This document shows positions 8,057 through 53,774 of a stretch of DNA of 64,000 nucleotides, one piece after another. Made by a program: the position numbers and the translations under genes. The notes under the pieces are model-generated. The model saw only the letters and a program-made list of their open reading frames with translations, had not been told where the DNA came from and did not search any database. Positions within the stretch are counted from its first letter, which is position 1. Each line of letters starts with the position of its first letter. Source of the stretch: a virus (lineage: Duplodnaviria > Heunggongvirae > Uroviricota > Caudoviricetes). The stretch lies in the IMG/VR virus record IMGVR_UViG_3300043080_000590, positions 258,386 to 322,385 of that record. One strand, given 5' to 3'.

Positions 8057-11000
8057 TTGAATAATGGTATAAGATTAAATAGTTTTGATTATGGCATTAA
8101 TAATACATTAAGAAATAATATCACTTCTTCAACTGAACCTGTAACCGCATATAAAGCTTTATTTGAAGCACAATTTGATATAATTTTTGGTAATAGTGTT
8201 TCATTAGTTGATGGTTCTTTTTCAGGAACATTAAAAGGTATTCCTTTTAAAAATATTATTGATAGATTAAATTTTGTTTATTGTGTTTTTAAACAAGAAG
8301 GTTCTCAAACTGGCATAATGTCTGTTTCTAATGGAATGAAATTTTGTTATGATTTAAGTATTTTTGATAGCGAACACGTTAATAGTAATAGAACCATACC
8401 ATTTTATATGGAGAACAGAAAAACAAAAGAAGTAGATGAAATATTAAATGAATTACAAGAACAAAATTCTTATTTTGATACTATAATGAGTGAATACATT
8501 AGCTCATATTCTCAAAGAAATACCTTTGCAGATGTAAAAAGAGTATTATTTATGGAAGTTGATTTTTATATTCTTGTTATTAATCAAAATGGTTCAGAAT
8601 ATACTGATTGTAAATTATATAATCTTTTTGAATATTTAAAGGAATGTGCTAAAAATACTTATAGTGAAAGTACAGAAGAAGAATTTAAACAATATGAATT
8701 GGATATAAGAAATACAGACAATACTCTTGAATTATTTAACAGCGATAATTATTATTACAAATTAAATTATCCTAATCAAGAAATATTTGATGGAGATATA
8801 TTAAGTAGTATAGTTTCCAAAATGGAAAATTTATATTCAACATATTCTACAAATAGTATTACCTCTATTAAATACTGGTTGCCTTTTGTATCTCCTGATA
8901 GATTTAGTACTTATGTGAATGATGTTTATTCAAAAATAGAAGCTGATGGTAGAAAATTTTCTCATTATCCAAATGTAGTTGAATATTATTATTGCATTTT
9001 AATAAGTAGAATTACAGGGTATTTATTAACAGGTAATACTTTGTTAAGTGCTGATTTACGTTTGGGCGGTCCTAATGTAATGGATATTGAAAGTACATGG
9101 GCGAGATATATATTATTTCATTATAAATATGATAACTCAGAATTAACTGGTGGCATAAGACAATATTTTGCTTTTTATACTTTTTATAATGATAATTATT
9201 ATTCAGCAAAAGATACTTCAAACATATATATAGATAATAAATTTCATTATGAAGATATAAAGTATTTAACAGAAGGTAATTTACTTTATGACTTAAAAAA
9301 TGATGCTGAAAAAAATATAGTTTTTACTAATGAATGTAATTATTTTAAAGTATATTCTGAATATGAATCTTTAGAAGAAGGTGTATCAACTCAAAAAAAT
9401 AGTAATGCTTATGATGAAATACAAAATATGCTTTACTTATTAAAAGTAGATACATGGTCTTTTAAAAACAAATTATTTAGTGCTGATGAAGATACAAGTG
9501 GTTTAGTTGTTTTTAAAAGTAATATAAAAGATAGTCCTAGTAATTTTATTAAAAAACCTGATTATTATTTATATAGTCGTTTAGGTAATTATTCAATAGA
9601 TTTTAATTACTTAAAAGACGATGAAGATGTAGGTGACGGTGGATATAGTCAGATAAGTTTTTATGATAGTGAAGAATCCCAAACAGATAAATTATTTATT
9701 TTATGGAATTGTACAACTTCAAGAAGATTGTTGTATTCTCATTATACAAGAAGTTATTATAAATTTGTAATACCAAACGATAGTTTAGGTTATCTCACTT
9801 ATTCAGCTGCCACAGAAGAAGAAACAAAATTAACAGGTAATCTTTATATTTACTTTGATGATGATTTAGGTATTGTTTATATTAAAGAGCATAATGATTT
9901 ATCTGCCACTACATTAAAATTCTTAACTAATAAATATACTTCAATAAATAGTTATTTTCAAACAACAATAAAACATTTATTAAATATGTTGCCATTGTCA
10001 TATAATACAGAAATTATTGATACTAACTTTTATAAAATATTACGAACTGCGGCTATTCAACTTGCAGAAACAAAATATGGATTACAAAAAGTAAAACGTG
10101 GTATGTGGCTTAACGCTTTGGATGACGATGGAATAGAACAATGTGATGATGATTTACTATATAACAACTTTGGTAGTATGATAGATTTGCCTAAAAAAGC
10201 AAAATGGAGTTACGACCAATATAGAGCTATGATTAGTGCTGTATATGAGGTTCTTATAAAAGGACCAAATAAAGAAAGTATGCAGAACGCTATAAAGAAA
10301 TTCACAGGTTATGAAAACTATTTATATGAGTTATATAAAAATGACGAATATATCTTTTCTAATTTAACAGTAGATAAACAATTTAGATTTGCTGTGCAAA
10401 TATTAAAAGATTTAGATACTTATGATGATAGTGCTGAAATGATGGAAAATGTAAAATTTTTATTGGATATGATAAAACCTGCTCACACATTATACTTAAT
10501 ATATGTTGGTTTATCTTCAAGTGAAACAATAGATGTTACTAATAATTTTACAGACACAGATTTTTTTGAAAATGAAATGCTTTTAAGAGAAGCTACATTT
10601 GGTGCTGATGTTGATAGTGCTTTTCAATTATTCCCAAGTGAAAATACATTAAGTAGATTATTATTAAATGAAGATTATTGGAAAAATGTAAATGGTTGGG
10701 ATAGTACATATAATGGAACAACACAATATATGTGGTTGCAATATGTACAAGAAAAATTAAATGAAAAAAATGCACCCTATCGTAGATTGGCTGTTAATCA
10801 AAGTAAAGTTGAAGCTATATTTGCACAAGATATGTATGCTGATTTAAAAGAAATATATACAGATATAAGAAATAATACATATAATACTCTTAAAGAAGAT
10901 TTTGAAGCATTAATTACACCTCAAACTAGTGGAGAATATTATAGTTTACAATATGTAACGGAAGATTATCATTGCGAAAACACACTTGGATATGAAACTC

Positions 11001-15628: not shown

Positions 15629-18136
15629 TTACTTTTTTAATAATCTCATATCAAACTTTTTAATTTCCCAAGCTTCTTCTGTTCTATATAATTTTTCTCT
15701 TGTTCTGGCGTGTCTACGAAGCATAGGTGTATAATCTTGAAAATCAAACACAATAGCTCTTTTCTTTTCTTTACCTGTTTCAGGATTTTTATATAGTCTT
15801 AATACTCTACCCACTCTTTGAAAAGCTCTTGTGGAACTACGACCACCACCTGCTAATATCAAAATCTCTAAGTTAGGTATGTCAAGTCCTTCATCTGCTA
15901 TTGTACTACCTATTAAGATTTCTACAAAACCATCTCTTACACCTTGAATAACAGCCTTTCTTCTTACAGCATCATCCTTACCTGATAAAAATTCTACATT
16001 AGCAATTCTAACTAATTTATCTTTACCTGTCTTATCATCAGTTACTTGAACTGCTTTTTTTACTATTTCTATCTTTTTAGATAACATTTTTAATATTGTT
16101 TCTCCGTGTTCTACTTGTTGAATTAATATTAAGATAGGTGCGTGTTTTACTTCTCTCATTTTAACTGCTATACTAACAACAATTTGATTTCTTTCTATAT
16201 TATTAGCAATAGCTTCTTTATAAACTTTATTATAAGATTTACCTTGAAAAACTCTTTTGTAAGGAATAAAGTAAATAGTACAAGGCACTAAATATCCCCA
16301 TTCAATAAGTTTGCTTGCTGAAATATCATTTTCTTCTTTTCTTCTATCTAGTGCTGCTTCTAATAATAAATCAGCACCATCTTCTCTCCACGGAGTGGCT
16401 GATACACCAATTCTATAATAAGCATTTTTAGCCCATTTAGATATTTCTACAAATGTATTAGAACCTATATGATGACATTCATCAAATAAAATCATATTAG
16501 AATCTTTAATATCTTCTTCTGTTGTTGATTGAGCAGAATAAACAGTTATATCTCTTTTCTTGTTTATGCCACCACCAACAATACCTACTTCTTCCCCTAA
16601 AAACTTTCCAATTTCATCTTTTAGCTGTGTACATAAAGTTAATTTATCAGCAAAAATTGAAACAGGTCTAACATTAAACTTATCAATTAATCCTGCCATT
16701 ATAAATGTATTATGCGTTACTATAAAATCTTTACAAATAAATGTATGTAATGGACTATCTACTGCTATACACTTCATTTCAGACTTTGTAGGTAATGGAG
16801 TTATTGAAACAATTTTTAAAGCATTATAATGATGATTTTTGCCTATTCTTCTATTCTTAAATCTTTCAGTATGTTTTTTTGATGTAAATAATTTATCATC
16901 ACAGCCACGAACATGAATATACCACGTTTTGTTTCTATATCTATCACTATTAATTGTTCTTTTATCTAATACAATTTTCGCTCTATATCCAAGACTATTT
17001 AATAAAAATTGTACATCTTCTACTAATCGTTTGCTAACGGAACAATAAGTAATATGTCCTTTACTATTTACAGTACCATCTGTATCAAATAGTCCTTGTA
17101 AAAGTGCTATTCTGTCATTAACATCAGAAAATTTATATTCTTCGGGAATAAATTTATCTTCGCTTTTAATTCTTCCAAAAACCTTATGTATATAATCTCT
17201 TAAATTATCTTTTTTTCCACCGCAACCATATGTGTATTGAATCCTGTCTTTATGTCCATTTTTAAATTCTCCACCAAATTGTCTTGCTAAATCTTTTACT
17301 TTATTAATTACATCTTCCTCTGTATTTGTAAAAGTAATTTGTCTTTGAGAAAAGCCACCATCGCCTAATAATGCTCCCAATAAATATGGCGGTAAAAATA
17401 AATCTTTTTTCTCAAACTGAATTGGCTTACATACGGGAATGCTTAGAACTAAATTTCTTCCTGTTTTGATTTTATGATTGTTTAATATTTCTTCAACAGT
17501 TTTTACTTGCCATTTATTTTTTGAAAGATTGTCTCTTGTTGCAAATTTCCATAAATGATTTTTACAACATTTAATAGTTGTACCATCGTTAAATACTATT
17601 TCATATTCTTGTTGCTCACCTTGTGGATATTCTCCGATAACAGTTGTTTTATCTCCATTTTCATCAAAAACAATACTTCCTACGTGAATATCTTTTAATG
17701 GAACAAAACCATCAGGGGTTAGAATTGGCGTATCTAAGGGAATCGACTTGCCGCCGCCCGTACTGACCCTTACTATTTCCCTGTTTGAGGCGTTATCAAT
17801 TATTTTTTGTTGATAATCTCTCGCTTTTAACTCTACTTTTGAACCATCAGGTAAAGTCAAATATTCTTGTAATGCAAAATTAGCATTTTGTTCGGGTACT
17901 ACTCTTGTATCTGTTATTTTATATCCAATATTATTTTCTTCTAATATTTCATATACATAATTTAATAAACCAGTATAGGTCTTTTTTGTTTTTCTATTGT
18001 ACAAATGTCTTATTTGAATATATTCACAACCAAATTCTTTTACTTCAAAACTTAATTTTTCCCATATCTTTAATTCAATATCTTTTGAAAAACCAATCAA
18101 CTTTGAATATACATTATCAATTATAATTTCTGCCAT
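15629..18136 (-). CDS. SF2 (DExH) DNA/RNA helicase precursor containing an intein
   Basis: Walker A STGGGK|...|T is split by the intein. Motif II is DECHH and motif VI is QRVGRVLR. The extein is about 489 aa. Confidence 0.8.
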   Translation of the reverse strand: MAEIIIDNVYSKLIGFSKDIELKIWEKLSFEVKEFGCEYIQIRHLYNRKTKKTYTGLLNYVYEILEENNIGYKITDTRVVPEQNANFALQEYLTLPDGSKVELKARDYQQKIIDNASNREIVRVSTGGGKSIPLDTPILTPDGFVPLKDIHVGSIVFDENGDKTTVIGEYPQGEQQEYEIVFNDGTTIKCCKNHLWKFATRDNLSKNKWQVKTVEEILNNHKIKTGRNLVLSIPVCKPIQFEKKDLFLPPYLLGALLGDGGFSQRQITFTNTEEDVINKVKDLARQFGGEFKNGHKDRIQYTYGCGGKKDNLRDYIHKVFGRIKSEDKFIPEEYKFSDVNDRIALLQGLFDTDGTVNSKGHITYCSVSKRLVEDVQFLLNSLGYRAKIVLDKRTINSDRYRNKTWYIHVRGCDDKLFTSKKHTERFKNRRIGKNHHYNALKIVSITPLPTKSEMKCIAVDSPLHTFICKDFIVTHNTFIMAGLIDKFNVRPVSIFADKLTLCTQLKDEIGKFLGEEVGIVGGGINKKRDITVYSAQSTTEEDIKDSNMILFDECHHIGSNTFVEISKWAKNAYYRIGVSATPWREDGADLLLEAALDRRKEENDISASKLIEWGYLVPCTIYFIPYKRVFQGKSYNKVYKEAIANNIERNQIVVSIAVKMREVKHAPILILIQQVEHGETILKMLSKKIEIVKKAVQVTDDKTGKDKLVRIANVEFLSGKDDAVRRKAVIQGVRDGFVEILIGSTIADEGLDIPNLEILILAGGGRSSTRAFQRVGRVLRLYKNPETGKEKKRAIVFDFQDYTPMLRRHARTREKLYRTEEAWEIKKFDMRLLKK
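16709..17746 (-). other. Intein (346 aa) with LAGLIDADG homing endonuclease domain inside the helicase P-loop
   Basis: It begins with Ser (SIPLDTPILT...) directly after GGGK. It ends ...FIVTHN and is followed by Thr+1, which restores GKT. The two LAGLIDADG motifs are LLGALLGDGG and LLQGLFDTDGTV. Confidence 0.7.
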
Positions 18137-46680: not shown

Positions 46681-47794
46681 GTGACAGCGATGTTAAAGGC
46701 ATACAAATACAGGATTTATCCCAATGAAGAACAAAAGATATTGTTAGCAAAAACATTCGGCTGTTGCCGTTTTGTTTATAATAAAACACTTGCATACCGT
46801 AAAGAAAAATATGATAGTGAAAGAAAGTCTGTTAGTAAAACAGATTGTAATAATTACTGCAACAGAGAATTAAAGACAGCATATGAATGGCTGAAAGAAG
46901 TGGATAAATTTGCCCTTACCAATGCTGTTTACAATATGGATAATGCTTATCAAAAATTTTTTAAGGAACATACAGGCTATCCTAAATTTAAAAGTAAGCA
47001 CGACAATAACAAATCATATACAACCAATTATACCAATGGTAATATTGACGTAGATTTTGAGAACGGAAGAATAAAACTCCCAAAACTTAAACAAGTAAAG
47101 GCAAAACTACACAGAGTTTTTGACGGACAAATAAAATCAGCCACAGTTTCACAAGTACCGAGCGGAAAATTTTTTGTATCTGTTCTGGTGGAAACCGAGC
47201 ATAAAGAACTTCCACATAAACAAACGAATATTGGGTTAGATTTAGGAATTAAGGATTTGTGTATAACATCTAATGGTAAAATTTATAAAAATCCTAAAGT
47301 AATAAAAAGGTATGAGAAAATGTTGACAAAGTTGCAAAGACAACTTGCACACAAAAAAAGAGGAAGTAATAATTATTATAAAGCAAGGAAACGGGCTGCA
47401 TTGTGTTATGAAAGAATAAAAAATACAAGAAAAGATTATTTGCATAAAATTTCAAAAGAGATTATAAGCGAAAACCAAGTTATAGTTTCAGAAGATTTGC
47501 AAATAAAAAATATGATGAAAAACGATAATCTTTCAAAAAATATAGCTGATGTATCATGGTATGATTTGACAAGGCAGTTGGAATATAAAGCAAAATGGAA
47601 TGGCAGAGAATACGTTAAAGTAGATACTTTTTATGCAAGCAGTCAAATTTGTTCCGAATGTGGATATAAGAACGCAGAAGTAAAGGATTTGTCTGTTAGA
47701 AAAATGGATATGTCCGAAATGCGGAAAAGAGCATAACAGAGATACAAATGCAGCAAAAAATATATTAGCGGAAGGACTAAGACAAATAGCATAA
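46681..47794 (+). pseudogene. tnpB: IS605 OrfB/TnpB (RuvC-like, Zn finger) with +1 frameshift in an A-run near 47700-47710
   Basis: The ORF stops after ...[15 protein letters not shown]. The +1 frame continues [29 protein letters not shown], which is the canonical TnpB zinc-finger end, down to the stop at 47792-47794. Confidence 0.7.
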
Positions 47795-49062: not shown

Positions 49063-50019
49063 TTGATTTTAGAAAATCAAACAGTTGTTATTCAATGGAC
49101 GGGGCGTAATAGAAAAGAATATGAGGAATTAGGATATATCTTTACTAAATTTGGAGACCCGTTAGAAATTAAAGTAGAACATTTACATAAAGGTTCTCAT
49201 GAAGAAGTTTGGTATGAATGTGATAATTGTCAAAAAAAAGATAAAAGAGAATATAGAAAACTTCTTAAACAAGATATACATTATTGTAAAAAATGTTGTA
49301 CAATTAGACGAGAAGAAACTTGTATGAAAAAATATGGAGTAAAAAATACATTTCAGAGTGAAGAAAAAAAGGAAAAAATGCGACAAACTTGGAATAGAAA
49401 ATATGGAGTAGATAGCCCTTTAAAAAATAAAGAAATACACGATAAAGTAGAAGCAACCTGTATGAAAAAATATGGGGTAAAAAATACTTTTCAAGTAAAA
49501 GAGTTTCAAGAAAAAGGTAGACAGACAATAATTGAACGCTATGGAGAAGATTATTATAAAGAAAAAGCACTTACAATGATAAGAGCTTTAAATAATAAAA
49601 ATAGCTCAACAAGAACTTCTAATAATCAAGCAAGTATTTGTAATTGGACAAATGGTACTTTAAATTATAGAGTAAATAAATATTCTTTAGATATTAGAGT
49701 AAATGATAATTTGTATATTGAATACGATGGTTCAGGACATACATTACCTGTTATTTTAAAACAAGTTTCTAAAAAAGTTTTTAAGAAAAAAGAATTATAC
49801 AGAAACAAATATATGGAAAACTTGGGATATAAACTTATAAGGGTTATTAATCGTCAAGATGTTGATTTAAATAAAGATGAATTTTTAAAGTTATATAATT
49901 TCTGTGTTGATTATCTTAAAAATACAAATTATAAATGGATAAAAATTTATTATGACAAACAAATTGTTATAAGTAATATTTTTAAAAAAACTTTTGAAGA
50001 GGTGATAAATAATGAGTAA
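49063..50019 (+). CDS. Putative free-standing homing-endonuclease-like protein: N-terminal triplicated KYGVxNTFQ modules plus C-terminal Vsr/DUF559-like (PD-(D/E)xK) nuclease domain
   Basis: Three repeats of C(M)KKYGVKNTFQ... are present. The C-terminal segment YIEYDGSGH...ENLGYKLIRV resembles the DUF559/Vsr fold. It abuts the gyrB start, and the stop and start overlap. Confidence 0.45.
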   Translation: MILENQTVVIQWTGRNRKEYEELGYIFTKFGDPLEIKVEHLHKGSHEEVWYECDNCQKKDKREYRKLLKQDIHYCKKCCTIRREETCMKKYGVKNTFQSEEKKEKMRQTWNRKYGVDSPLKNKEIHDKVEATCMKKYGVKNTFQVKEFQEKGRQTIIERYGEDYYKEKALTMIRALNNKNSSTRTSNNQASICNWTNGTLNYRVNKYSLDIRVNDNLYIEYDGSGHTLPVILKQVSKKVFKKKELYRNKYMENLGYKLIRVINRQDVDLNKDEFLKLYNFCVDYLKNTNYKWIKIYYDKQIVISNIFKKTFEEVINNE

Positions 50020-50329
50020 TAATTATGATGTTGGGCAAATATCGTCTTTGGAAGGATTAAAATCCGTGCAATGTAAGCCAGCCATGTATGTAGGTTCTAC
50101 CTCCCAAGATGGTGTAAACCAAATAATTTATGAAGTATGGGATAATTCATTTGATGAATACAATGCAGGGTATGGAAATAGTGTTGATGTTCTTATTGAT
50201 AAGGACAATTATATAACTATTGAAGACCACGGTAGAGGTATTCCTGTTGGACCTCATGCTACTTGGAAAAATCCCGATGGTACACCGCAAGATACATTAA
50301 CAGGCGTATTAACAAGATTACACTCAGGT
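50012..50329 (+). CDS. gyrB: DNA gyrase subunit B, exon 1 (ATPase N-terminus, ends ...TRLHSG)
   Basis: Sequence ...VQCKPAMYVGSTS...EVWDNSFDE...EDHGRGIPV... is GyrB-like. The ORF stops 5 codons into intron 1. Confidence 0.8.
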
Positions 50330-50661
50330 AAGGGAATGATTGCTTGAGTATAAAACCACTTTAATTGAATTTTATATAAATAAAAATAATATAAAATTGC
50401 TGGAAACCTCTAAGATTTAAATTACTACAACATAATCGGAAATGATAGGTGTGAAAGTTAAAAAAATTTAAAATACATGAGCAATCAGCAGCCAAAATTC
50501 TAAGTATGATTAAGTTATATATGAATAAGGTTCAACGACTATCGAAAACGTAAGAAATATTTTTACAAGTGAGTAGAGTACATATATGAAAATATATGGA
50601 AACGAGTGGCACATTTTTTATGTGAAGATATAGTCTAATTTATATTGAAAAATATAAGTTG
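50330..50661 (+). ncRNA. Group I intron 1 (ORF-less, 332 nt)
   Basis: P1 forms between exon CUCAGGU and the IGS GCUUGAG at 50343-50349, with a U-G wobble at the splice site. Core elements are P aattgctggaaa (50393), Q aatcagcagcc (50481), R gttcaacgactatcg (50529) and S aagatatagtct (50624). The 3' terminal nucleotide is G, and the spliced product reads LHSG|GKLF. Confidence 0.8.
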
Positions 50662-51658
50662 GGTAAATTATTTGCTAATGGGGAATCAGGATATTTTAGT
50701 ACGATAGGCACGTATGGTCTGGGAGCAAAACTTACTAACGCTTTATCTGATGATTTTATCGCTAAAGTGAAAAGAAATGGTAGAATTTATCGGCAAACAT
50801 TTAAAAAAGGTAGACCTACCTCTGATGTTGAAATTATTGGTACTGTTGATTTAAATGATACAGGAACTAAAATTACGTTTCATCCTGACTCTACAATATT
50901 TAAAACGACAATTCAACCAAATGATAAAAAATTACAAAACAGACTTGATGAAATAACTTCTTTAAATACTAATTTAAAAGTTAATTATAAAAATGAATTG
51001 GCTAATGTAGATACAACATTTTATTATCCTAATGGTATCGCTGATTATATAAATAAGAAGTTGTTAAAAGATAAAAAACTTTTGTTCGAAGAACCAATTT
51101 ATTATTCAAGTGAATACGTGGATAATGATGAAACTATTAAAGTTGAATTTTCTTTAATGTATGTTGATGATGTGGAAAGTAATGAAATTATTAAAACATT
51201 TGCTAATAATGTATCAACAAAAGAACACGGTACACATTTAGTAGGTTTTAAAGAGGGTTACAAAGAAGCTATTAATCAATATTCAATAAGTAAAAAATGG
51301 ATAACCGAACCCATTGAGATTAAATATCTAATGGATAATATTTGTTTAATTGTATCTGTTAAGTTAAGAGAATGTGAGCTTGATGGACAAACAAAAAATA
51401 AATTAGGTAATTTAATAGCTAAAGATGGTGTTGCTAATGTTGTTAAAGAATACTTTAATAAATTAAGTAAAGAACAACAAGTAGTAATACAAACAATAGT
51501 TGAAAGAGCTAATAAAGTAAAAGAAGCAGAAGAAGCTGCAAGGAGAGCAAGAATAAACACAAGGACTGCTAATAAAATAAAGAAAATAGCATTACCTGGT
51601 AAACTTGCTGATTGTAGTAGCAATAAAGGATATAGTGAGTTATTCTTAGTTGAAGGAG
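50662..51658 (+). CDS. gyrB: DNA gyrase subunit B, exon 2 (…GKLFANGESGY…LADCSSNKGYSELFLVEG)
   Basis: GyrB ATPase-transducer and the start of TOPRIM. The ORF-track ORF is 50659-51666. The exact 3' boundary is uncertain by 1-2 nt. Confidence 0.75.
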
Positions 51659-52038
51659 TAGCCTAAGGCAGAAACTCCCTATTAAGTAGTAATATTTAAT
51701 AGAAAATTTCTTTAATTGCTGGAAGTTCCTAAAATTAATTATACCTTATAAAAGGTTGCGAAAGTAGAAAAAAATAATTAAATGATATATGGTGATAGTA
51801 AACCTAAGTATTATAAGAAATAATAATTTCTAACAATGGATAATCAGCAACAAAATATATAAATAAAAAATATATATGTTCAACGACTATGCTTTAAAAA
51901 GCAGTAGGATAAAAGTTTATCTGAAATGGGAAAATACTTAAATGTTTAAGTATATGATATAGTCTATGCACTAATGAAAGTTAGTGAAAAACTAAATGTT
52001 TTTATTATAGTTTAACAAACTATGGTTAATGTAATTAG
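51659..52038 (+). ncRNA. Group I intron 2 (ORF-less, about 380 nt), same subfamily as intron 1
   Basis: Core elements are P aattgctggaag (51711), Q aatcagcaac (51843), R gttcaacgactatgc (51879) and S atgatatagtcta (51954). The 3' end is G at 52038. The 5' junction is placed by protein homology (EG|DSAGG). Confidence 0.7.
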
Positions 52039-52106
52039 ATTCTGCTGGTGGTTCAGCAAAGAACGCAAGATATAGAGAATTTCAAGCTATATTACCATTA
52101 AGAGGT
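52039..52106 (+). CDS. gyrB: DNA gyrase subunit B, exon 3 ((D)[22 protein letters not shown])
   Basis: 68-nt micro-exon encoding the invariant [16 protein letters not shown] segment. It is absent from the ORF track. Confidence 0.75.
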
Positions 52107-52416
52107 AAGGAATTTGCCTCTACATTTCTAACTGTTTGATATAACAGGGTATGCTTAAAAACGATTTAAATTCGTTTTAAGGCTTGCTAACGAGGAAAGC
52201 TTAACATTATACATATAAGTCAAAATATGTTCAGGTGAAGTCAATCTCGTGCGAAATATAGCGATTTAATAATCGCTGTTCGTGTATCGACTATCCTAAG
52301 TTAGATTAGGAGTACAGGTTTTATAAAACTTGGAAATGGAATGACCGTTTTAAAAAGTTTGACAAACTTATAGGCTAAGAAATAGTCAGTGCTATTAGAA
52401 ATAATAGATTATAATG
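52107..52416 (+). ncRNA. Group I intron 3 (ORF-less, 310 nt), different subfamily
   Basis: P1 forms between exon AGAGGU and the IGS GCCUCU at 52116-52121, with a U-G wobble at the splice site. The 3' terminal nucleotide is G at 52416. The spliced product reads LRG|KILNTEKA. Confidence 0.7.
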
Positions 52417-53216
52417 AAAATCCTTAATACTGAAAAAGCCAGTTTTGAAAAAGCATTAAATTCAGATGTTATTAAATCATTTATTGCTGCAATAGGAACA
52501 GGTATAGGAAAGAATTTTAATATAGATAAATGTAGATATGATAAAATAATTATGATGTGTTTTACAGAAGATACGCAAGTAAAACTTTTAAATGGTACAA
52601 ATCCAACTTTTAAAGAATTAGTTGAAATGGAAGAAAAAAATCCCAATCAAACTTATGAAGTTTATTCAAAAAATAGTAATGGAAAAATTGTACACGGTAA
52701 AGCACATAACCCAAGAATTACAAGTTATATTCACGAATTAGTTGAGTTGACATTAAATAATAATGAGGTTGTTAAATGTACAAGAAATCATTTATTTATG
52801 CTTAATGATGGTACATATAAAGAAGCTCAATTATTAACGACAGAAGATTGTTTAATGAGTATGCAGGAAGAATGTAATAGGATTATTAATAAACAAATTG
52901 TTACTCTTGACCATTTAATTCCTGTCTATGATATAACAGTAGAGGAATATCATAACTTTGCTTTAAATAGTGGTGTGTTTGTTCATAACTGTGATGCGGA
53001 CGTTGACGGTTATCATATCTCAAACTTAATTTTAACTTTTATATATAATTATATGCGACCTTTAATTGAAAATGGTTATATATATTTAACAGTACCACCT
53101 CTTTATAAAGTTATTACTAAAAAGGAAAGTCTTTATATAAGAGATGATATTGAGTTAAAAGAATATAAAAAGAAACACCCAAGAGAAAATTTAGAAGTAC
53201 AAAGATTTAAGGGGCT
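52417..53216 (+). CDS. gyrB: DNA gyrase subunit B, exon 4 (TOPRIM), containing a mini-intein
   Basis: Sequence KILNTEKASF...IGTGIGKNF...KIIMM[intein]CDADVDG...PPLYKV...QRFKGL. The ORF-track ORF is 52414-53250. Confidence 0.8.
52558..52989 (+). other. Mini-intein (144 aa, no endonuclease domain) in the GyrB TOPRIM motif
   Basis: It starts CFTEDTQVKL with Cys1. Block-B-like CTRNH is present. It ends GVFVHN and is followed by Cys+1. Removing it restores IIMM-CDADVDG, matching the conserved IIMTDADVDG motif. Confidence 0.75.
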
Positions 53217-53587
53217 AACTCTTTGTCCTGACCCCTATTCATTTTATTAAGTAAGTTTAATACTTGCAAACGGAAAGAGCCTAAGTATGTTTAGAAAAAT
53301 ATTTTTGTAATAATTTAAAATATTTTTGCAATATAAGGTAATCCCGTGGGAAGATATTTAGAAAATATTTTTTTAGAAAGTGTTTTTTAGAAAGTGTTTT
53401 TAAATAATTATTTTTTAAATATAGCCTGTACAGACTAAAGGTAGGAAACCTTGTAGGAATAAATTAAATTCCGAAACAGTGAATAGTTATATTATGTTGG
53501 TATTGTTTTTATAAATCTTTAAATACTGTTAAAATAATATAAATAAAGATATAGTCGGCGGTTTATAGAAATATAAATTAAACGCAT
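53217..53587 (+). ncRNA. Group I intron 4 (ORF-less, about 371 nt)
   Basis: P1 forms between exon AAGGGGCU and the IGS GACCCCU at 53230-53236, with U53216 wobble-paired to G53230. An S-like aagatatagtcgg lies at 53546 and R-like gtacagactaaa and P-like aatcccgtgggaag are present. It contains a 15-nt tandem repeat at 53377-53406. Confidence 0.65.
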
Positions 53588-53774
53588 AGGAGAAATGGAT
53601 TACGAAGAACTCAAAGTCACTACAATGGACCCAGCAACAAGAGTGTTAGAAAAGATTGCTATTGATGATGTTGAAGAAATGGTAGAAGCATTTAATGTAT
53701 GTATGGGAAGTAATGTAGAGATAAGAAGAAAATTTATTGAAGAAAACGCTCAGTCAGTAAATTTAGATAATTAA
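53588..53774 (+). CDS. gyrB: DNA gyrase subunit B, exon 5 (C-terminus (L)GEMDYEELKVTTMDPATRVLEKIAIDD...FIEENAQSVNLDN)
   Basis: It matches the conserved GyrB C-terminus GLGEMNxEQLWETTMDP...RRxFIEENA. It is absent from the ORF track. The 5' boundary is uncertain by 1-3 nt. Confidence 0.7.

Follow-up and report, generated by a model that had tools for sequence, protein, structure and literature searches.

A GyrB/ParE-like topoisomerase gene of a probable very large phage, predicted to carry four group I introns and a mini-intein

The stretch of viral DNA analysed here (64,000 nucleotides (nt), positions 258,386 to 322,385 of IMG/VR record IMGVR_UViG_3300043080_000590; hereafter the window) very probably contains, at 50012-53774 on the plus strand, a single gene of a very large phage that encodes a GyrB/ParE-like topoisomerase B subunit and has been colonised by selfish elements at its most conserved motifs. 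The initial annotation had described this locus as five exons separated by four group I introns that lack an open reading frame (ORF), with a mini-intein in addition, and the description was borne out by Rfam, by a covariance model built from relatives only, by introns at the same sites in related phages and by intein models. Below, homologous loci of other phages are written L002, L003 and so on, database proteins P0001 and so on, and an arrow marks an insertion point or splice junction. The parts of the gene are as follows.

50012-50329 (+): exon 1, 318 nt, amino acids (aa) 1-106; N-terminal part of the GHKL ATPase, ending ...LHSG
50330-50661 (+): intron 1, 332 nt, ORF-less group I intron
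50662-51658 (+): exon 2, 997 nt; the remaining ATPase domain and the transducer domain, ending ...LVEG plus 1 nt
51659-52038 (+): intron 2, 380 nt, ORF-less group I intron
52039-52106 (+): exon 3, 68 nt; (D) and 22 protein letters, part of TOPRIM, without a start codon of its own
52107-52416 (+): intron 3, 310 nt, ORF-less td-like (IA2-type) group I intron
52417-53215 (+): exon 4; TOPRIM DxDxD region and C-terminal domain, housing the intein and ending ...RFKG plus the first base(s) of a Leu codon
52558-52989 (+): mini-intein inside exon 4, 144 aa; Cys1, block B T-R-N-H, C-terminal His-Asn, Cys+1
53216-53586 (+): intron 4, 371 nt, ORF-less td-like group I intron (53217-53587 in the initial annotation)
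53587-53774 (+): exon 5; remainder of the Leu codon followed by GEMDYEEL..., with DNA_gyraseB_C; stop codon at 53772-53774

When 50012-50329, 50662-51658, 52039-52106, 52417-53216 and 53588-53774 (all +) are joined, 2370 nt in one frame are obtained, which encode 789 aa followed by a stop codon. Exon 4 ends at 53215 or 53216, a junction ambiguity of 1 nt. All five exons are intact, with no frameshift and no internal stop, and an AGGTGA Shine-Dalgarno sequence lies 6 nt upstream of the ATG. In Pfam the joined product matches HATPase_c, DNA_gyraseB, Toprim, DNA_gyraseB_C and Intein_splicing; together with the alignment to the GyrB model this gives a full-length architecture of GHKL ATPase, transducer, TOPRIM and C-terminal tail. 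Without the intein the product is 645 aa long. Its alignment to GyrB had been proposed as a check, and when this was carried out the NCBIfam GyrB and ParE models were matched from end to end, with no indel at a junction. When the product is aligned to its relatives (66-77% identity), there are zero indels at HSG↓GKLF, VEG↓DSAGG, PLRG↓KILN and KGL↓GEM. The nearest annotated relative, the uninterrupted gp252 of Bacillus phage G (49% identity), likewise aligns without indels at the four junctions; it and P0001/L002 were the intron-less homologues used for colinearity.

The NCBIfam scores are 611 bits against a cut-off of 882 (gyrB, TIGR01059 equivalog) and 557 against 900 (parE). Since both are below the equivalog cut-offs, the name "GyrB/ParE-like type IIA topoisomerase B subunit" is the safest. 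The plain name gyrB, used earlier, is therefore justified as far as the B-subunit domains are concerned, which are all present, but not by these scores, nor by a GyrA-like partner, which was not found by tblastn in the 64-kb window. The phage G homologue is annotated as "DNA topoisomerase II large subunit". The exon 2 ORF is identical to a database protein (P0121, with the JGI label "DNA gyrase subunit B") whose longest contig measures 502,690 bp, and therefore the gene would belong to a very large phage. For the 68-nt exon 3, independent matches were obtained to phage G gp252 (blastn) and to an exon of L050 (tblastn, 69% identity), so that the exon is real and, as had been stated, gene callers miss it. 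Because it holds indispensable TOPRIM residues and yet has no start codon, RNA splicing would be required for any functional product.

According to the ORF list, no ORF longer than 44 aa occurs inside any of the four gaps, and a protein-level search for remnants of the GIY-YIG or LAGLIDADG genes of the relatives found none within these introns. A covariance model (R1) was built from nine introns of the relatives with zero window sequence, and it spans the core of P6, P7, P7.1, P7.2 and P8. When R1 was run over both strands of the window, matches were found solely in the four gaps, one in each and all on the plus strand, with scores of 78.9 bits for intron 3, 55.9 for intron 4, 31.5 for intron 2 and 20.1 for intron 1. 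In the structure of R1, 89% of the cells are paired compared with 31-40% when the partners are slid. For the td-like family, which comprises the relatives of introns 3 and 4, compensatory double changes are present at 16 of 25 pairs, and none of 500 shuffles was as high; P6, P7.1 and P7.2 are paired at 97-100% in this family, and RNAalifold independently recovers P4, P5, P6, P7, P7.1 and P7.2. The P8 column of R1 carries no weight since it is misaligned (48% paired). Subgroup IA is marked by two extra hairpins between P7 and P3' (Michel & Westhof 1990). Such hairpins, P7.1 and P7.2, covary in the td-like family and are aligned in introns 2, 3 and 4 by R1.

For the J8/7-P7 signature GAWATAGTC, 1.03 occurrences would be expected in the window and 5 are found; 4 of them are on the plus strand, where each gap has one close to its 3' end. 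The only match to GATATAGTC beyond the four introns is at 9642-9650 (+), within a 1226-aa ORF; it is probably due to chance, as neither R1 nor Rfam matches there. The P, Q, R and S boxes quoted in the initial annotation were found as written, and introns 1 and 2 share them. Guide sequences complementary to both flanking exons were also found, with a crude P1+P10 score of 12-14 out of 16 compared with 8-12 in cross-controls; being only slightly above the controls, this complementarity is supportive at most. At the level of sequence, all four gaps are confirmed as ORF-less group I introns of the IA type.

Introns 1 and 3 are canonical. In intron 1, an 8-bp P1 (ACUCAGGU/GCUUGAGU) has U.G at the splice site, the last nucleotide is G, and the guide extends into P10. 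The Rfam group I model RF00028 recognises it at 50356-50657 with 52.6 bits against a gathering score of 50 (E = 1.7e-10), and the R1 core match lies at 50534-50635 (E = 0.024). Two homologues are known at the same site: one of 257 nt in L050 (L050_i1), which is also ORF-less, and one of ~1.36 kb with a LAGLIDADG ORF in L014 (also L014-16), with 70.6% identity over 170 nt. In intron 3, P1 is AGAGGU/GCCUCU and includes the U.G pair, P10 spans 9 nt with a single mismatch, and the last nucleotide is G. R1 matches it at 52240-52389 with 78.9 bits (E = 7.6e-15), and Rfam gives 16.9 bits (E = 0.04). Its same-site homologue in L050 (L050_i3, aa 461) shows compensatory changes in P4, P6, P7.1, P7.2 and P9. 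The core of introns 3 and 4 consists of P4 ACGRGG/CYCGU, the P7.1 and P7.2 hairpins after P7 and J8/7 AAGAWAUAGUC, a layout which we take to be td-like.

Intron 2 is matched by R1 at 51884-51964 (31.5 bits, E = 9e-5) and partially by Rfam (24 bits, E = 4e-4). It ends in G, as do introns 1 and 3, in agreement with what had been claimed for these three, and has P1 GGAG/CUCC and P10 UUCUGC/GCAGAA. Its first 135 nt at the 5' end are 71-78% identical to gene-splitting sequences in the jumbo phages LPJP1, S6 and MarsHill. In Listeria phage LPJP1 it is rpoB that is split, and in S6 and MarsHill, both jumbo phages of Staphylococcus, a prohead protease gene, for which the MarsHill annotation gives a joined coding sequence enclosing a LAGLIDADG gene. 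The site-2 intron of L050 is not homologous to intron 2. It belongs to a different (td-like) family, lies 1 nt upstream and has a canonical U.G and terminal G. Cleavage of intron 2 behind the U at 51659 was considered and rejected, since every matching 3' site gives a frameshift, a stop, or a D to V change with a terminal A.

Intron 4 is matched by R1 at 53337-53558 (55.9 bits, E = 5.8e-10) and partially by Rfam (E = 0.0065). Homologous introns occupy this site (aa 583/584) in L003, L004, L005, L006, L009, L010-13, L014-16 and L050, and the 3' half of intron 4 is 85-86% identical to those of L003, L005 and L009. Two of the eight other family members (L003 and L014) carry a GIY-YIG ORF in the P6 loop. 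At the junctions the eight relatives read ...GGGU↓UAAC...G↓U(A/U)(A/G)GG, so that U.G stands at the splice site, the intron ends in G and P10 is UAGGA/UCCUG; the window reads ...GGGGC↓UAAC...CGCA↓UAGGAG, with A at the pairing position of the guide. This homology-based junction is 1 nt upstream of the one proposed in the initial annotation. Both give the same mRNA and neither lets the intron end in G; the earlier one has U.G beside C.A and a terminal U. The claim of a U-G pair in P1 therefore stands for introns 1 and 3, but for intron 4 such a pair exists solely at the shifted junction, beside the C.A mismatch. An altered G-binding site was considered as the cause of the terminal A and rejected: intron 4 and its relatives have the same P7 sequences, with the G-binding pair unchanged. 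The P6 loop of intron 4 contains an AT-rich insert of ~100 nt which is absent from the short family members, and in which the 14-nt unit TTTAGAAAGTGTTT is present in ~3 tandem copies at 53357-53401. No protein-level remnant was found in this insert, where L003 and L014 hold the GIY-YIG gene.

The 144-aa mini-intein with Cys1, HN and Cys+1 in the TOPRIM motif DADVDG was confirmed in exact size and residues at 52558-52989. Its motifs are C1, ...KC-T-R-N-H-LFML and ...GVFVHN↓C. The Pfam model PF14890 (Intein_splicing) is only just reached, with 36.2 bits against a cut-off of 35.8; the NCBIfam models give 40.8 against 24.5 (TIGR01445, intein_Nterm) and 35.3 against 15.6 (TIGR01443, intein_Cterm), and solved mini-inteins such as Npu DnaE and Spl DnaX are matched distantly. 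As it has only 144 aa, the intein has no room for an endonuclease domain. The insertion reads IIMM↓intein↓CDADVDG, and excision restores IIMM + CDADVDG, comparable with IIMM(T/C)DADxDG in the relatives. Several intein-less relatives naturally have MCDADxDG, and so the required Cys+1 pre-exists in the clade.

The nearest relatives of this intein, at 42-46% identity, are mini and HNH-bearing inteins of the GyrB homologues P0001, P0017, P0237 and P0239, with which it shares the C-terminus ...HNFAL..G.FVHN. All of these occupy the classical GyrB site (given below) and not that of the window intein, including the best match, the mini-intein of P0001 (45% identity, E = 6e-40). A specific move from the other GyrB site was rejected, because inteins of GyrA, of a caspase-like protein and of others score similarly. 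The classical GyrB intein allele of cyanobacteria, haloarchaea and others belongs to the same HINT family, but sits at EGDSAGG↓C...HN↓S(A/T)K; the window intein is ~65 residues further downstream and has Cys instead of Ser at +1. A single "gyrB" intein allele is listed in PMC4071816, and 33 bacterial GyrB inteins are reported in PMC4760082. When the intein and its flanks were used as the query, no further protein turned out to carry an intein at IIMM↓...↓CDADVDG. The DxDxD site therefore differs from the classical GyrB site and is apparently unreported.

According to the scheme that we propose, the gene would be transcribed as a single precursor RNA, in which each ORF-less ribozyme would fold by forming P1 with the upstream exon and the P3-P9 core including P7.1/P7.2. 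The introns would then excise themselves by two-step transesterification initiated by guanosine, with P10 aligning the downstream exon, and splicing would yield the 2370-nt mRNA and from it the 789-aa precursor. The intein would be removed as a class-1 intein, through an N-S acyl shift at Cys1, trans-thioesterification to Cys+1, Asn cyclisation and an S-N shift, and this protein splicing would restore IIMM-CDADVDG in an enzyme of 645 aa. The earlier proposal that expression needs both RNA and protein splicing is supported in this predicted form. Splicing itself, including how introns 2 and 4 would cope with non-canonical splice-site nucleotides, we infer from the sequence. The introns and the intein of the window are probably late-stage, immobile descendants of homing elements, because they have no endonuclease while their relatives at the same sites carry LAGLIDADG, GIY-YIG or HNH genes.

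Several observations weigh against a gene that is accurately spliced throughout. For intron 2, position -1 at the junctions which restore EGDSAGG can be only a G opposite C or an A opposite U, and not the U of the U.G pair found in its jumbo-phage relatives and in the site-2 intron of L050. Intron 4 differs from all eight relatives at exactly three positions that define the splice sites, namely U to C at -1, G to A in the guide and G to A at the intron end. A terminal A impairs exon ligation in model ribozymes such as the Tetrahymena intron, and one or both of introns 2 and 4 could splice poorly or not at all. The gathering score of RF00028, with which the four intervals were to be verified, is reached by intron 1 alone, while introns 2-4 stay below the threshold. 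Their sub-threshold matches are all on the plus strand, each to the P8-J8/7-P7-P9 half. At E <= 0.01 the same model found nothing in the loci of nine relatives either, though these clearly hold introns. As it misses the AT-rich IA introns of the relatives, its silence on introns 2-4 is weak evidence.

Alternatively, the elements may be genuine and the gene nevertheless decaying, on a pseudogene route in which introns 2 and/or 4 no longer splice accurately and little or no full-length enzyme is made. Besides the three substitutions in intron 4 and a G-C pair in place of U.G at the cleavage site of intron 2, this would agree with the loss of every homing-endonuclease ORF, as expected late in the homing cycle, and with the absence of a GyrA partner nearby, unlike L002 and L014. 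We consider it unlikely, since the five exons are intact and 66-77% identical to the relatives over their whole length, the change from U.G to C.A in intron 4 is a double change (synonymous in the exon, within a Leu codon) that preserves the wobble geometry and looks like selection keeping P1, and intron 2 keeps guide complementarity of 4+6 bp to the exact junction. Moreover, there is a natural precedent for intron 4: the group I intron ND5-717 of hexacoral mitochondria also ends in A instead of G and yet is spliced in vivo (PMC6545197). It is a mitochondrial, giant and obligatory intron, probably dependent on host factors, and is unrelated to intron 4 in sequence and context. Splice sites for intron 4 shifted by one or two bases, at GGGGCU↓AAC and AAACG↓CAUAGG, would be the only ones with both U.G and a terminal G, and the reading frame would be kept. 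The mRNA would then be 3 nt longer, with the junction GGGGCUCAUAGGAG instead of GGGGCUAGGAG, in which there is no extra CAU, and the protein would read K-G-L-I-G-E-M. We judge these sites to be quite improbable, because an extra Ile would stand in the near-universal KGLGEM, where no relative has such an insertion, and the P10 pairing that the family conserves would be separated from the 3' splice site by 3 unpaired nt.

A gene split into separate polypeptides that assemble non-covalently, as in T4 gp39/gp60, with the gaps being spacers or remnants, appears very improbable to us. In its favour, gene callers treat the fragments as individual ORFs, AGGAG precedes an in-frame ATG in exon 5, and T4-type phages do have a split topoisomerase (bioRxiv 10.1101/2022.08.31.505936). 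On the other hand, the 22 codons of exon 3 have no start codon, exon 2 could start only at a TTG without a ribosome-binding site, the AGGAG 2 nt from the exon 5 ATG is coding sequence (G-E) conserved in all relatives, and the supposed spacers hold conserved, covarying ribozyme cores. We therefore retain the reading of one colonised gene as the best explanation.

Protein searches and contig look-ups revealed a clade of phage homologues whose topoisomerase gene has been repeatedly invaded. The locus L050, from Logan contig SRR12711153, has an exon 2 that is 63% identical to that of the window and five introns in the gene. Four of them are at the sites of the window, with homology at sites 1, 3 and 4; the fifth, at aa 512/513 and four codons from the intein position of the window, is present instead of an intein, which L050 lacks there. 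In L003, L005-L009 and L050, an intervening sequence of ~330-370 nt was observed within the DADVDG codons (aa 512/513), four codons from the intein site of the window. Across the phages, EG↓DSAGG↓S was seen to carry two intron families, 1 nt apart, and an intein within five codons. Both this region and DADVDG look like hot spots of competing selfish elements. In L009 (P0005, from a cluster of 14 sequences) the motif reads EGLSAAG at aa 434 (GAA GGA TTA AGT) without interruption, as opposed to the near-universal EGDSAGG, and therefore the Asp beside the catalytic Glu is not invariant in the clade. In L002 (7996-10376), an intron-less and intein-bearing relative, the nearby GyrA-like gene has an intein with an HNH domain as well. 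No match to the locus was obtained by megablast among 50,697 phage records, a look-up with the exon 2 protein of the window yielded no contig for a comparison of strain variants, neither a protein-guided scan of IMG/VR nor a scan of IMG/VR for the intron-core pattern found a relative, and a scan of a single metagenome yielded one close relative only, which ends at aa 441.

When compared with known systems, the locus is a dense case of an established phage habit and not a new kind of system. The subgroup IA2 introns of phages, including td, nrdB and nrdD of T4, have been reviewed (PMC3984707, PMC2988022, PMC11878797). The introns of the window resemble the T4-type ones in their self-splicing type, in residing in a phage gene for DNA or nucleotide metabolism, in their insertion at conserved motifs and in the relatives' ORFs being placed in a peripheral loop (GIY-YIG in P6); the differences are that the host gene encodes a topoisomerase B subunit and not td, nrd or DNA polymerase, and that there are four introns, all ORF-less and two of them non-canonical. 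Staphylococcus phage Twort orf142 has three group I introns and shows exon skipping (Landthaler & Shub 1999, as cited in PMC11878797). There too, several group I introns interrupt one phage gene and short internal exons lie between ribozymes; the window has four introns plus an intein, predicted from the sequence. Skipping of exon 3 in the manner of Twort would shift the frame, since 68 nt is not a multiple of 3. An intron and an intein within one gene are known from bnrdE of the B. subtilis prophage SPbeta (PMC8270828, citing Lazarevic 1998). This, too, is a single phage gene that requires RNA and protein splicing, with one intron and one intein compared with four and one here and in a different host gene.

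Jug phages have on average 18.5 group I introns per genome, and 37 of 76 predicted introns have metatranscriptome support (PMC12880540). As in Jug and crAss-like phages (PMC12880540), the genome concerned is probably very large and a gene assumed to be essential is fragmented by introns and an intein, with a probable stand-alone homing endonuclease beside it (see below). The lineage is a different one, Jug introns average ~206 nt compared with 310-380 nt here, and PMC12880540 does not describe a topoisomerase B gene of this architecture for Jug phages. The stack had been called unusually dense. Dense it is, but this is relative when L050 has five introns in the gene and Jug phages 18.5 per genome. 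What may be new is that five or six elements reside in a topoisomerase B gene, that an intein occupies the DxDxD site and that the splice-site nucleotides of two introns are non-canonical. A more far-reaching combination, in which introns 2 and 4 are active and accurate without the near-universal splice-site rules and the intein marks a second, unrecorded GyrB site in the metal-binding DxDxD motif, ectopically acquired from the family at the classical site, is possible but less likely than not. If it is true, phages would offer in introns 2 and 4 natural cases of relaxed splice-site chemistry, with cleavage after G-C or A-U in the former and with C.A and a final A in the latter, and functional junctions of this kind would bear on how ribozymes recognise their splice sites.

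The locus is also a compact catalogue of selfish-element traffic, in which five conserved motifs of topoisomerase B each carry an intron or an intein. Different elements are found at the same hot spots: two intron families at EG↓DSAGG, an intein at GG↓S, and an intein at MM↓C as opposed to an intron at DAD↓VDG. Among the relatives, one and the same intron is found both with and without an ORF, which bears on the homing cycle. The locus is useful for annotation as well, because gene callers fragment the gene and miss the 68-nt exon entirely.

A further gene is located directly upstream of the topoisomerase gene.

49063-50019 (+): homing-endonuclease-like gene, 318 aa; its last 8 nt overlap the start of the topoisomerase gene

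Its product matches PHROG 12131 "homing endonuclease" (E = 1.4e-35) and Pfam DUF7487 (E = 3.5e-19) and has a weakly DUF559-like C-terminus. Homologues with 50-53% identity lie directly upstream of the topoisomerase gene in L005, L007 and L009, and we infer a free-standing homing endonuclease that is linked to the topoisomerase locus. The N-terminal half of the product contains a repeated CMKKYGVKNTFQ motif.

The window as a whole is phage DNA; its genes include those for a baseplate wedge protein, for helicases and for an SbcC-like nuclease, and no tRNAs were found in its 64 kb. Another mobile element is indicated ~2.3 kb upstream of the topoisomerase locus, where a 351-aa ORF at 46681-47736 (+) matches phrog_506 "transposase" (E = 1e-118). 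At 15629-18136 (-), helicase and large-terminase PHROG matches fall on different parts of an 835-aa ORF, which is possibly a fusion or contains an inserted element.

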